A stretch of DNA of 5,560 nt from a virus (lineage: Duplodnaviria; Heunggongvirae; Uroviricota; Caudoviricetes), in the IMG/VR virus record IMGVR_UViG_2703718872_000024, one strand, 5' to 3'. Positions 1 to 5,560 of this stretch are shown piece after piece. The notes below the pieces were generated by a model. It worked only from the letters and a program-made list of their open reading frames with translations, was not told the origin of the DNA and ran no database searches. Both the position numbers and the translations under genes were made by a program. Within the stretch, counting starts at the first letter, position 1; each line of letters begins with the position of its first letter.

Positions 1-3000
1 GGTACAGGCCCGCCTTGCCCGTGGCAACGCGCCGACGGCGGAGGAGCTTGTACGTTCACAGATGGCTGAAGGTGATGCCGGTCCGACAGCACAGGAGTTA
101 ACTGAGCGTCCGCGTCTGCCCGCCCCCGGCGATATTCATCCCGGACAGGGATATCCGTTACCGGGAGAAGTGGCGCGTACGCCGGATGAAAATCAGGCCG
201 GACGTGGTGGTCGTTTTACCACAACCGGTGAGGTGAAGGGCCAGAGTTTCCAGAAAGGACGTGCGCAGGCACCGGAAAATGCCGCTGGTCGCCAGGGGGA
301 AATTCTGGAGGGCGAACCGGTTCGTCGTGGTCTGCCGTCACCGGATGAGCAGAACGCCACAGCACCAGTGCGTGAAGGACTTCCTGCACCTGAAAGTCAG
401 CGTGGGGTTGATATGCCACAGCCTGAATCACTCCCTCGTATGGTTCGTGACTCCCTTCCGGAACTGGCACAGCAGGCAGAAGCACGCAGACAGACCGGGG
501 ATCGCCAGACCATAACCGATGTTCCGGATACTGAGGTGCCGGTAGATAAACCGAGCACTCACCAGCAGGCGCGTGGTGCGAAAATTGAAGACTTTGGCGA
601 GGAGATTAAGGGCGCGGCAAAACACCGTTATGCGCAGCTTGCTGAAGCTATGGGTAAAACGCTGGAGGATGGGGAGTACGCGACACAACCACTGAGCAAA
701 CTGTTTCCAAAGCCGGATTATGCTCGTCTGGAAAAAGAAGGTGTGGATAGTGACACGCTGGCAATGATGGCGTTGTATCGCAGTGAAATTCCCACCAGAA
801 CAAGCCGTAACATGCAGAAATGGATCAGCATTGTTAAAAGCGGTCGCGAAGCTACTGCCGGTATGCTGGAGGGGAAAATTCCGGCAGCGAAACTGGCTGA
901 TATGATGGACAGTAAGCCGGGGTTACGGAGCATGTCGGATACCTGGAAACTGCTCCGTACGCTTTCTGCATTGCAGATTGATAAAGCATCCGGCTATCGT
1001 GTCAGGTCCGGTGTTTATTCGTTTGTCGGGGGAAAACGTTACGATCCGCCGCAAATGATGTATTCGCTTCGTGATAGCAAGGGGCGCGACCTCTTTTTCT
1101 CGGAAAGCCGGGATGAGTTACTGAAAAAGGCGAAAGCATATTTCGATGAACAAGGCTCCAGAGAAAGGGAAACGCCAGCAACCTCTGCTGATGACAGAAT
1201 AACCTTTGACGTGTACCGGCATAAGGCCAGTGGCGACATTTTTATCGGTTATGGCAAAAACAGGCAGAAACTGAAGGGCGGTTTTGAGTCTGCCCGTGAT
1301 GCACATGATTATGTGCGCACACATCGTGATGAGCTGGTTAATCAGGTGAAGGCGCTGCGTGAAGTCTCGCGTGAGGAGCAGCGTAACGCCACCAACCGCG
1401 ATCGTACCGGACCAGAACGCCGCAAGGGGGATGTTTCGCCGGAGCAGTTCAGTGATGCGTTTGGTTTTCGTGGTGTGCAGTTTGGTAATTATGTGGAAAG
1501 TCCGCGTCGTCAGGCTGATTTGAACCGGGCTTATGACTCGCTGCATGACCTGGCTGACGTGCTGAACGTGCCGACAAAAGCGCTTTCTCTGAACGGTCGT
1601 CTTGGGCTTGCTTTTGGTGCCCGTGGTAAGGGTAAGGCGGCGGCACACTATGAGCCGGGTGAGGTGGCAATCAACCTGACAAAAGGTAACGGACCGGGGG
1701 CGCTGGCCCACGAATGGTTCCATTCACTGGATAATTATTTTGGTCGTTATGATGTTTCCACTGACGGGAAGATCACGTCAGGTGGCGACTATATGACGGA
1801 AGCACAGCGTGCCGGGCGCGTATTTAAAGACGGCAGGTATGTTGATGCGGAATATCCGGTACGTCAGGAGGTTTACGACGCGTTTAAAGGCGTGATGAAA
1901 GCCATTAACAGCAGTGACATGTTGCGTCGTTCTGAACGCCTGGATGGCGTTCGTTCAAAACCGTACTGGTCAACGGATGTTGAAATGGCGGCGCGAGCCT
2001 TTGAGCGTTATGTTCAGGATAAAGCGCGTATGGCTGGCGTGGAGAATGATTATCTGGTCAATATCCGTAAGGCGGATGACCATGGACAGCCGGACACCTA
2101 CGCTTATCCGACGAATGCAGAACTGGATGGCGGTATTCGTGAGGCATTCGATCACTTGTTCCGAACACTGAAAACCCGTGAGACGGACAAGGGAGTTGCG
2201 TTTTATTCCCGTAAGGGCGTGACCCGCACACCTGAAGGCAATCTGATTTCGGATGTTAACCGCAGTGCGGAAGCCAAAGGCAGTCCGGTCTCGCAGGTTG
2301 AAGCTGTTGCCCGTGGCGTGATGAGCGGCATTAAGGACAGTGACCTGAAGGTCCGTGTGGTGAAGTCACAGAAAGAGGCTGAAGCGCTGGCGGGTGAATC
2401 GTTCGACGGTTACGGCAGGGTGCACGCATTCTATCGTCCGGATAAACGAGAAATTGTCCTGGTGGCGGATAACATCCCTGACGGGCGGACCGTACGCGAG
2501 AAGTTGCGTCACGAGATTATCCACCATGCCATGGAGCATGTTGTCACGCCAGCGGAATATCAGACGATTATCAAAACCGTGCTGAAAACCCGCGACAGTG
2601 ATAACGCCACCATCCGTGAAGCATGGCGTAAGGTTGATGCGTCCTATGGTAAGGAATCTCCGGAAGTACAGGCGGGTGAATTTCTGGCACATATGGCGGA
2701 GAAACAGCCGAATAAATTCGTGGCGGCATGGGAGCGTGTTGTTGCTCTGGTCAAAGGGGTACTGCGTCGTACGGGGTTACTGAAGCCGACGGAACTGAAC
2801 GATATCAGACTTGTTCGCGAGACCATCCGTACGTTAGGCCAGCGTGTGCGGGAAGGTTACACGCCGCGTGAGGATGGCGTGGGCGCATCGTCTCAGTACT
2901 CCCGTAGTGGTAAGCCTGATCCGTTCAAAGTGCCGGAAGGTGAGGGTGAACGTTATCGTGATGACCTTGCCAGAATGATGAAGTCGTTACGTTCTGGTGC

Positions 3001-5560
3001 AATGACTGCAAACATTGGGCGTACGCCGCCGGTATTGCGCCACCTTGGCGCACCGGATTTGCCGCTGGTTATCTCCCGCGACACTGTACGGAAGGCAACC
3101 AATGGCGTGAAACATGTGGTGCCAATGGATGTTATCGAGAGACTCCCGGAACTGATGCATGATCCGGATGCAATTTACCGTTCCGCGACAGAAAGAAATG
3201 CAGTTGTGATGCTGCTTGATGCCGTGGATAAAAATGGCGATCCGGTGGTGTCGGCAGTGCACATGAAGGCGACAGGTAAACGTCTGGAAATTAACAAAGT
3301 GGCTTCTGTATATGGTACGGAAAACGGGAAAAAGCTGAAAAGCATGGAAATGGCTGGATTAACGCTTTACCGGAAGGAAAAATTAAGCCGCGATAACCCT
3401 CAGTACAGTGGGCTCCAATTGCCCAAAGAGGAGCGTTCTTATCGCGGCTCTGTAGATAAAATACTCTATCCTGAAGATATTCGCAAGGGGCCGTATTACT
3501 CCCGTACCAGCAGTCTGACACCGGAAGAGACAATTATATCGCGTTTTGTGCGCCAGATGCAGGATAAATTCCGGGTGCTGAAAGCTGTTCAGGAGAATAT
3601 CCGTAAAACTGGCGGAAAAATAGACGATAGTAACAACGCTTATATGGCGGAAGAACTCTTCCACGGGAAGGCGGAAAACGACCTGAACGTGATGAAGGAG
3701 CGCTACGTTCAGCCACTGGCTAAATTACTGGCGGACTACAAAATTGCGCAGGCCGATCTGGATGAGTACCTCTACGCCCGTCACGCGCCGGAACGTAACG
3801 CACATATCGCGAAAATCAACCCGAAAATGCCGGACGGCGGTTCGGGGATGACCAACGCGGAAGCGGCGGAAATCATGCAGCGTGTGCGTAACAGTGGCAA
3901 ACAGGCACAGTATGACCGTCTGGCTGGGATTGTTGACGATATGCTGGCCCGTCGCCGTGAGCTTATCCGTGAGGCCGGACTGGAAGAGAGCGGAGTGGTG
4001 GATGCCTGGCAGAACGCCTACCGTTACTACGTTCCCCTGAAAGGTCAGGATGTTGACGGTATGGTGTCACTGCCCCGTACAGGTAAGGGCTTCACCATCG
4101 GCGGACGTGAAAGCAGGCAGGCCATGGGGCGTGCATCCCGTGCACAGTCTCCGTCCACTCAGGCGATACAGGACCTGAGCGAATCGCTGATCCGCCATCG
4201 CAAAAACGAAGTGGGTAACGCCTTCCTGAAACTGGTGCAGGATAATCCTGACAAGGATTACTGGCAGGTCTTCACTGATGACAGACCTGATACCATGCGT
4301 GCGATTGCAGAGCGTGTTGATCCGGAAACCGGTGAAACCCGTCGCGAAGTTGTCGAACGCCCTGTACCGATGGCAATGATGGCAGACCGGTACTTCACCA
4401 CCAAAAAGAACGGCAAAACGTACTACATCAAACTCCATGATCCGCGCCTGATGCGTGCGATGAAGAGTATGGGACCGGAAACCAGCAATGCCTTTGTTCG
4501 TACGCTGGGGAAAGTTAACCGCTTCCTGGCAACGGTGAACACGTCGTATAACCCGGAATTCCTGGTCAGTAACTTCATCCGTGACGTGCAGACGGCGGTG
4601 ATGAACCTGAAGGCGGAGCAGGGAAGGAGCGACGGTAAACTGAAAGGGCTGGATAACTTATCCGCCCTGGCTGTAGCCAAAGACAGCCGTTCTGCCATGT
4701 CAGCCGTATACGCCAGTCTGCGTGGTAAAACCCTCACGGGAAAAGGTGCACAGTGGCAGAAGGTGTGGAAAGAGTTTGTTGAGGACGGAGGGAAAACCGG
4801 CTGGTTTAACATGGGTGACCTTGAAGGCCAGCAGAAGGAAATGGATCGCCTTGTCTCACTGGCGAAGGGGGGATGGAAAGGCCAGAGTATCGGTGCATGG
4901 AATTCGTTCCTTAACCTTGTCGAGGATGCCAACGGTGCGGTTGAAAACGCTCTGCGTCTTTCTGCCTATAAACATGCCCGTGATGCCGGTTTGTCACGCC
5001 AGCAGGCGGCGTCTCTTGCCAAAAATATGACGGTGAACTTTAACCGTCGTGGTGAGCAGGGGGCGCTGATGAATTCGCTGTACATGTTCGCCAACGCCAG
5101 CATTCAGGGAACGGCAAATCTGGTGAGAACGCTCGGACATCTTAATGGAGAGGGACCTTTACTGGAGCGCCTTCGCTGGAAGAATCTGAATGTTCCGCAG
5201 AAAATCGCGCTTGCCGCTGTGGGAGCGGGTTATCTGCTTGGCTCGCTTAACCGCAGCGTGGCGGGTGAGGATGATGACGGGGTTAACTGGTATGACAAGG
5301 TGCCGTCTCATGTGAAAGAGCGTAACCTCGTCATTATGAAATCGGTGTTCGGGGGCAAGGCCGGAGAGTACTGGAGTATTCCTCTGCCTTACGGGTACAA
5401 CGTTTTCTTCCTGCTTGGTCACACAGCCGAAGGGGTGGCAGCGGGCGACCTGACCGCTTCACGTGCTGCCGGTAATGTTGTTGGTGGTGTGCTTGGGGCA
5501 TTCAGTCCTGTGGGCAGTGAAACGTCGGAAACACTGTCCGGGGCATTGCTGAAAAATGCA
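1..5560 (+). CDS. Internal fragment (5' and 3' truncated by the window) of a giant multidomain protein of more than 1,853 aa; hypothetically a phage/conjugative-element 'polyvalent' protein with zincin-like HExxH modules. Codon phase: first complete codon at nt 2-4, last at nt 5558-5560.
   Basis: Manual translation of frame 2 gives 1,853 consecutive sense codons and no TAA/TAG/TGA. The chance of this in random sequence is about (61/64)^1853, roughly 1e-39. Codon choice is strongly biased toward CTG/CCG/CGT/GCG/AAA/GAA. All other frames and the minus strand are broken into short ORFs. No start or stop codon for this gene lies in the window. Confidence 0.9.
20..560 (+). other. Low-complexity, probably disordered N-terminal region of the encoded protein (Pro/Glu/Gly/Arg/Gln-rich)
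   Basis: The translation reads ...GDAGPTAQELTERPRLPAPGDIHPGQGYPLPGEVARTPDENQAGRGGRFTTTGEVKGQSFQKGRAQAPENAAGRQGEILEGEPVRRGLPSPDEQNATAPVREGLPAPESQRGVDMPQPESLPRMVRDSLPELAQQAEARRQTGDRQTITDVPDTEVPVDKPSTHQQARG... It has few hydrophobic residues and recurring LPxP(D/E) motifs. Confidence 0.55.
317..466 (+). repeat. Degenerate tandem peptide repeat (about 16 aa per unit) within the low-complexity region; repeated at protein level, diverged at DNA level
   Basis: Unit 1 at nt 317-364 encodes PVRRGLPSPDEQNATA. Unit 2 at nt 365-412 encodes PVREGLPAPESQRGVD. A looser third unit at nt 413-466 encodes MPQPESLPRMVRDSLPEL. A related motif YPLPGEVARTPDENQ lies upstream at nt 152-196. The two main units use different codons (for example ccggttcgtcgtggtctgccg versus ccagtgcgtgaaggacttcct). 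Confidence 0.5.
1440..1760 (+). other. Candidate zincin-like metallopeptidase module (HExxH motif HEWFH at nt 1709-1723)
   Basis: The translation reads ...SPEQFSDAFGFRGVQFGNYVESPRRQADLNRAYDSLHDLADVLNVPTKALSLNGRLGLAFGARGKGKAAAHYEPGEVAINLTKGNGPGALAHEWFHSLDNYFGRYD... The H-E-W-F-H codons are cac gaa tgg ttc cat at nt 1709-1723. The Gly-rich FGFRGVQFGNY segment lies at nt 1460-1492. The call rests on the motif only; the fold is not verified. Confidence 0.45.
2402..2560 (+). other. Second candidate HExxH metallopeptidase-like module (HEIIHHAMEH at nt 2510-2539)
   Basis: The translation reads ...FDGYGRVHAFYRPDKREIVLVADNIPDGRTVREKLRHEIIHHAMEHVVTPAEYQTIIKTV... The HExxH residues are encoded at nt 2510-2524, followed by H at 2525-2527 and E-H at 2534-2539 as possible extra ligands. 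The call rests on the motif only. Confidence 0.4.
5201..5560 (+). other. Gly/Ala-rich, partly hydrophobic segment of the encoded protein (possible membrane-interacting or flexible region)
   Basis: KIALAAVGAGYLLGSL is encoded at nt 5201-5248. Further on come ...YWSIPLPYGYNVFFLLGHTAEGVAAGDLTASRAAGNVVGGVLGAFSPVGSETSETLSGALLKNA. The hydrophobic runs are about 15 residues, short for a canonical transmembrane helix. Confidence 0.3.

Follow-up and report, generated by a model that had tools for sequence, protein, structure and literature searches.

The LPD5, LPD1, MuF_C and LPD38 domains are hallmarks of the 'polyvalent proteins' (Iyer et al., 2017, J Bacteriol 199:e00245-17, PMC5512222). One to five metallopeptidase (MPTase) domains, of which 12 clades have been published, occur in 36% of these proteins, with more than one copy in ~8% of those, and the MPTase class as a whole has been proposed to cut the polyprotein into functional units (Iyer et al., 2017, PMC5512222). 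Here we describe a stretch of 5,560 nucleotides (nt), hereafter the window, from a virus of the class Caudoviricetes (IMG/VR record IMGVR_UViG_2703718872_000024). Its DNA is 90-97% identical to 186 records of short-tailed, Shiga toxin (Stx)-converting phages of the genus Traversvirus, and its plus strand encodes an internal fragment of a giant polyvalent virion protein with two HExxH motifs. We read the second motif, HEIIH, with a probability of roughly 0.6, as the active-site signature of a second gluzincin-type module (amino acids (aa) 734-965 of the window frame), likely a polyprotein endopeptidase that acts after ejection.

An original prediction, made by a model from the letters alone, had pointed to a second HExxH about 270 residues past the first. 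Translation of nt 2402-2560 (plus strand) gives FDGYGRVHAFYRPDKREIVLVADNIPDGRTVREKLRHEIIHHAMEHVVTPAEY, identical to the peptide it reported. HExxH occurs exactly twice in the window frame, as HEWFH at aa 570 (nt 1709-1723) and, 267 residues further on, as HEIIH (aa 837-841, nt 2510-2524, plus strand). The codon of the glutamate in the latter, E838, is GAG at nt 2513-2515, as had been claimed. HExxH is short and the region lacks a curated family model, so one may ask whether it is a meaningless chance pentapeptide. At the composition of the window protein, the chance expectation is 0.037 HExxH per protein, and at least two arose in 0.065% of 20,000 shuffles (P = 0.00065). The motif is also invariant in 382 homologues and set in a predicted zincin fold. 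Because it is conserved in homologues as remote as 23% identity, the second motif is not a product of chance, and conservation refutes that explanation to the point where we give it practically no credence.

The stretch between LPD1 and MuF_C, where the motif lies, is matched by none of the families in Pfam or NCBIfam and by no PHROG family with a named function, and word-indexed searches for homologues returned only near-identical fragments from E. coli and Salmonella. An exhaustive HMMER search with a cut-off of E<=1e-3 yielded 382 homologues, the most remote at 23% identity. Nearly all are proteins of 1,000-6,000 aa, a few stand alone with 210-270 aa, and the matches in BFVD are polyvalent proteins. 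To judge from these sequences, the zincin-like MPTase module that carries the second motif (module 2; aa 734-965, nt 2201-2896, plus strand), which is bounded by junction motifs at both borders, is a conserved domain family almost exclusive to giant phage polyvalent proteins.

Conservation was counted over 159 aligned copies of module 2, a check that the original prediction had called for. The first His is present in 157/159 copies (two copies lack it), and both the Glu and the second His in 159/159. A further glutamate, E893 (nt 2678-2680), is equally invariant (159/159, and an unvarying column in alignments A1 and A2). It sits 52 residues past the motif, separate from the motif helix, within a conserved A-E-E-x-x-A-x-x-A-E helix that reads AGEFLAHMAE in the window (aa 891-900, nt 2672-2701, plus strand) and whose last residue, E900 (nt 2699-2701), is kept in 148/159. 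Sequence and model together thus make E893 the predicted third Zn ligand, in a gluzincin arrangement, alongside H837 and H841 as predicted ligands and E838 as predicted general base. The closely spaced extra His and Glu residues that had been suggested for this role are unlikely to fill it, as none is conserved: within HAMEH (aa 842-846, nt 2525-2539, plus strand), H842 falls in a column of Y, H, K or F, E845 is confined to the Stx clade (10/10), and H846 is variable and differs even inside that clade. Other conserved positions include W875 (130/159) and Y882 (nt 2645-2647, plus strand; 150/159), a candidate transition-state (oxyanion) tyrosine that the model places at the end of the helix before the Glu helix. 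Directly before the motif helix lies a predicted edge strand, EIVLVADN (aa 817-824, nt 2450-2473, plus strand), in which A822 is kept in 138/159 copies and N824 in 112/159.

The modelled core of module 2 (aa 779-956, nt 2336-2869, plus strand) has the order beta1-alpha-beta2-beta3, motif helix, two inserted helices, Glu helix and two more helices. In model 1, strands 5-9, 31-34 and 39-43 are followed by the motif helix (50-69), and E893 lies on helix 109-122. Model 2, made with AlphaFold for an HExxGH member, has the same layout, and its DSSP string shows a continuous motif helix. Sequence and models accordingly display the features expected of a gluzincin, namely a helix bearing the HE motif, a Glu on a later helix, and a mixed sheet with an edge strand before the active-site helix, and the fold of module 2 is predicted to be the zincin fold. 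Two findings had been named beforehand as speaking against a peptidase, variable motif residues and a non-peptidase fold; we saw neither, since H, E and H are conserved and the predicted fold is that of a peptidase.

We compared module 2 with known peptidases. A Foldseek search of the model against the PDB gave nothing significant, and sequence and profile searches of the PDB with module 2 gave only chance helical matches. There was no match to the family hidden Markov model of Pfam MPTase-PolyVal (PF18818, ArdC-type). Against Peptidase M76 (ATP23) the window scored 13.1 bits, below the cut-off of 25.2, and 9/45 members matched, with a best E of 0.035. The closest fold is that of the ATLF-like zincins (MEROPS M34, which includes PPEP-1/2/3), although module 2 has neither a sequence-level nor a Pfam match to them. 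The layout of Y882 and E893 is analogous to that of Tyr190 and Glu197 in PPEP-3, and the role of the edge strand in PPEPs has been described (PMC12828418). The spacings differ, with 11 residues from Tyr to Glu in module 2 against 7 in ATLF/PPEP, and 52 from His to Glu against 40. ATLF and PPEP are moreover secreted, whereas module 2 is intracellular and virion-borne.

The top matches among the ATLF-like zincins are inactive copies that bind protective antigen (PA). A catalytically inert domain of zincin fold, structural or binding in nature like the N-terminal domain of lethal factor, could conceivably aid packaging or a trans-envelope conduit. In inactive zincins the motif is lost. Across ~159 copies of module 2, reaching down to 23% identity, H, E, H and the distal E do not vary, apart from the two copies that lack the first His. 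That purifying selection has kept precisely the catalytic tetrad speaks for chemistry, and we consider an inert domain improbable.

Dipeptidyl peptidase III (DPP III, M49) offers a second point of comparison. No other well-studied peptidase family has the hexapeptide HEXXGH; natural HEXXH pentapeptide variants coexist with it and have the same Zn site, which provides a solved precedent. An EEC(R/K)A(E/D) helix ~55-60 residues downstream supplies the third ligand with its second Glu (PMC5805324). Module 2 resembles this pattern in its HExx[GAV]H or HExxH motif followed, 49-52 residues downstream, by A-E-E-x-x-A-x-x-A-E. It lacks what defines M49, namely HEXXGH with EEXR(K)AE(D) in a two-lobe fold.

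Module 2 also resembles the HEXXXH MPTases of the 2017 survey. As in that set, module 2 stands in a giant phage-type polyvalent protein with LPD5, LPD1, MuF-C and LPD38 and combines a sheet of three strands with a helix bearing the HE motif and a distal Glu helix, between which inserts lie, and the polypeptide carries several MPTase modules. The HEXXXH spacing of that set is present in 147/159 copies of the family, and a direct count gives G in 62, A in 48 and V in 29 for the extra residue. Unlike that set, the window and its clade lack this hallmark spacing and have HExxH through a one-residue deletion; the clade is not covered by public models (Pfam, NCBIfam, PHROG function).

HExxH alone occurs in 0 of the 159 copies, and HExxHH only in the window and its nine closest relatives (at least 46% identity). 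In the nearest outgroup, which is 37-41% identical to the Stx clade, the motif is HE[VI][IL]AHHG[LM], and relative to this outgroup the Stx clade is exactly one residue shorter at four independent downstream anchors, I856, W875, Y882 and E893. From these sequences, the simplest history of the Stx-clade motif is a single deletion, HExxAHH to HExxHH, by which H841 would equal the family's second His and H842 the residue after it. An ungapped reading, which makes H842 the conserved His and H841 specific to the lineage, was rejected, as the anchor distances to the nearest outgroup favour the deletion. In the Stx clade, the deletion coincides with the clade-specific E845 (region of nt 2522-2536, aa 841-845) and with a change from AEE, the form of the family, to AGE (or TAE) in the ligand helix (nt 2672-2680, aa 891-893), and these changes may together represent compensatory remodelling of the metal site. 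By its sequence, the window is thus a derived member of an HExxxH family, in which the motif has taken the canonical HExxH form.

The first motif belongs to module 1, a zincin-like MPTase that together with LPD1 spans aa 468-726 (nt 1403-2179, plus strand). Module 1 matches NCBIfam CLCA_X at E=2.7e-45 and 154.8 bits, below the cut-off of 260, and LPD1 itself (aa 647-726, nt 1940-2179, plus strand) matches Pfam at E=4e-23. Besides HEWFH, it has a hallmark Asp, D577 (nt 1730-1732), and 23/23 copies share H549, H570, E571, H574 and D577 without variation. LPD1 always follows module 1 (HEWFHSLD), and the pair stands immediately upstream of module 2 in 25 homologues. Module 1 fits the phage-type MPTase clade of Iyer et al. 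(2017). Both modules are polyvalent-protein MPTases. BLAST detected no similarity between them, and the view that the second motif belongs to a separate zincin-like module in a different sequence context was borne out; hhalign matched strand 2, the edge strand and the motif helix of module 2 with module 1 (aa ~490-646), as remote homologues. The hallmarks H549 and D577 of module 1 (23/23) are absent from module 2, while the A-E-E helix, Y882 and W875 are features of module 2, unlike module 1. Two zincin modules in one polypeptide had been called unusual. Within this class of proteins they are not, given the copy numbers of the 2017 survey and the presence of the same module 2 twice, often in tandem, in 25/122 giant homologues. 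The two copies are usually one of HExxGHY and one of HExxAHH type (two-copy homologues include P0017, P0019, P0020, P0021, P0029, P0031, P0035, P0051, P0080, P0091 and P0096).

We then considered the borders of the modules. The window frame, 1,853 residues long, contains the motif [FYW]-S-[RKQ] just three times, at aa 735, 966 and 1166, each time at a module boundary. The first, FYSR (aa 734-737, nt 2201-2212, plus strand), forms the N-terminal border of module 2. The second, YSR within QYSR (aa 966-968, nt 2897-2905, plus strand), separates module 2 from MuF_C, and the third, YSR within YYSR (aa 1166-1168, nt 3497-3505, plus strand), separates MuF_C from the large C-terminal module. Among homologues (P0015-P0162), the motif stands before module 2 in 82/155 copies and at a fixed offset before MuF_C in 20/25, against a background of 10% per 80 residues. 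It lies 85-99 residues before the first His in 68/134 homologous copies (102 in the window) and is almost absent elsewhere in the 150 residues upstream of module 2 in homologues. Stand-alone homologues start ~10 residues past the position of the junction motif. Before the next module after MuF_C it is seen in 9/25 copies, and many have GFSIPDE there instead.

On these grounds we can outline how module 2 might work. H837, H841 and E893 would hold one Zn2+, E838 would act as general base and activate water, the substrate would pair as an extra strand with the edge strand EIVLVADN, and Y882 would aid transition-state stabilisation. After ejection into the host, module 2 would cleave inter-module linkers of the polyprotein, in cis or in trans, and free modules such as MuF_C, with the conserved [FY]-S-[RKQ] junctions as candidate recognition sites. 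A more specific proposal, that [FY]-S-[RKQ] is the recognition or cleavage signal by which MPTases free stand-alone effectors from the ejected polyprotein, and that HExxH, AGE and E845 of the Stx clade constitute a remodelled metal site, is tentative and we hold it with considerable doubt. The text of the 2017 survey (PMC5512222) names no junction or cleavage motif, and neither the junction-motif signal nor the return from HExxxH to HExxH in the Stx clade appears in it. An active metallopeptidase could also be an injected effector that cuts host proteins (defence, envelope or regulatory) rather than the polyprotein. It would have no known target, the sequence points to no specificity, and the fixed junction motif at module borders is explained more simply by self-processing; we regard a host-directed effector as rather unlikely.

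Module 2 is physically present in virions. The homologous protein gp47 of phage phi24B was found by proteomics in purified virions, is unseen in the cryo-electron microscopy map and has been proposed to be an ejection protein; tryptic peptides covering both motifs are listed in the supplement of that study, namely HEIIHHAMEHVVTPAEYQTIIK (34 peptide-spectrum matches (PSMs)), EIVLVADNIPDGR (80 PSMs) and GNGPGALAHEWFHSLDNYFGR (7 PSMs) (bioRxiv 10.64898/2026.04.10.717836). It is from these motif-covering peptides that the presence of module 2 in the particle follows. Two observations speak against processing inside the virion. The PSMs of gp47 fall mostly in four gel slices above the 80 kDa portal (2188, 1686, 1187 and 1260, versus at most 663 below), and phi24B virions contain intact peptides that end in ...FYSR, ...QYSR and ...YYSR, although these peptides attest only to the bonds within F-Y-S-R, a cut after Arg being indistinguishable from trypsin. 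Cleavage, if any, would therefore take place after ejection or be only partial.

Since the protein is in the virion and ejected early, module 2 might instead hydrolyse peptidoglycan peptides and help the ejected protein through the cell wall. The known cell-wall metallopeptidases belong to LAS/M15 or M23 and have other motifs, and module 2 has no match to the LAS/M15 or M23 families. Polyvalent proteins do that job with lysozyme or DD-peptidase domains. Peptidoglycan degradation was suggested in the phi24B preprint for what it labels 'a metallopeptidase domain' (bioRxiv 10.64898/2026.04.10.717836). That label was placed on MuF-C, which is described as PBECR, a BECR-fold RNase-like domain (Iyer et al., 2017, PMC5512222), and the preprint makes no mention of the two real HExxH modules of gp47. 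A role in peptidoglycan hydrolysis is in our view very improbable, and we favour polyprotein processing after ejection.

The gene that carries these modules is the last and largest late gene of its phages, known as orf35 in Stx2 phage 86 (2,783 aa) and gp47 in phi24B (2,811 aa), with tail and Lom genes on one side and the integrase on the other. The window is a single uninterrupted frame 2 (nt 2-5560, plus strand; 1,853 codons, zero stops) that is open at both ends, and its first residue corresponds to about aa 702 of orf35. That it is an internal fragment of this gene is indicated by the open frame, DNA identity, the annotated context and a match to phrog_616 that spans its full length. Pfam finds four domains in this open reading frame (ORF): LPD5 (aa 343-486, nt 1028-1459, PF18799, E=1.7e-43), LPD1, MuF_C (aa 1036-1127, nt 3107-3382, PF18819, E=4.3e-18), which is predicted to be a BECR-fold RNase-like domain, and the start of LPD38 (aa 1762-1841, nt 5285-5524, PF18857), which extends past the window; all are on the plus strand. 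By this domain content the window protein is a multi-effector 'polyvalent' protein, in agreement with the original prediction.

Module 2 is therefore a previously unannotated member of the known polyvalent-protein MPTase kind and no new kind of system; two modest details are new, namely the junction motif and the return of the Stx clade to a pentapeptide. Among the non-capsid components of the virions by which Shiga toxin genes spread, the giant protein is the largest and one of the most abundant. Placing its two peptidase modules corrects annotation, both the 'hypothetical protein' of databases and the metallopeptidase label put on MuF-C in the 2026 phi24B preprint. The precise residues (E838, H837, H841 and E893) and the candidate cleavage sites also make the long-standing hypothesis that MPTases process polyvalent proteins testable in a tractable E. 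coli phage.

Other parts of the protein showed minor features. Upstream of LPD5, nt 2-600 of the window (aa 1-200) are of low complexity, with much Pro, Glu, Gly, Ala and Arg, and probably form a long disordered linker from the N-terminal third to the enzymatic modules. That N-terminal part, aa 1-700 of orf35 (L001 6898-9000, outside the window), is without a Pfam domain and includes Gly/Ala-rich hydrophobic segments, for example LIGALVPDMVAGGVAKK and GGTLGAAMGAPFGAVAGY, which could be membrane-inserting parts of an ejection protein. Inside LPD5, nt 1250-1318 (aa 417-439) have a sub-threshold match to Pfam Arm-DNA-bind_4 (E=4.9e-4, 20.1 bits, cut-off 22.3).

Long antisense ORFs run inside the giant gene, on the minus strand of the window for example at nt 1118-1723, 4067-4438 and 4423-4932, and at L003 3192-3515, 5667-6047 and 6398-6769. 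Three antisense ORFs are labelled hypothetical proteins in the phi24B record (vb_24B_50c/51c/52c), and the antisense ORFs are probably artefacts of the long ORF on the opposite strand. In the phi24B proteome table, a 134 aa frame-3 product in the gp47 range has only 2 PSMs.
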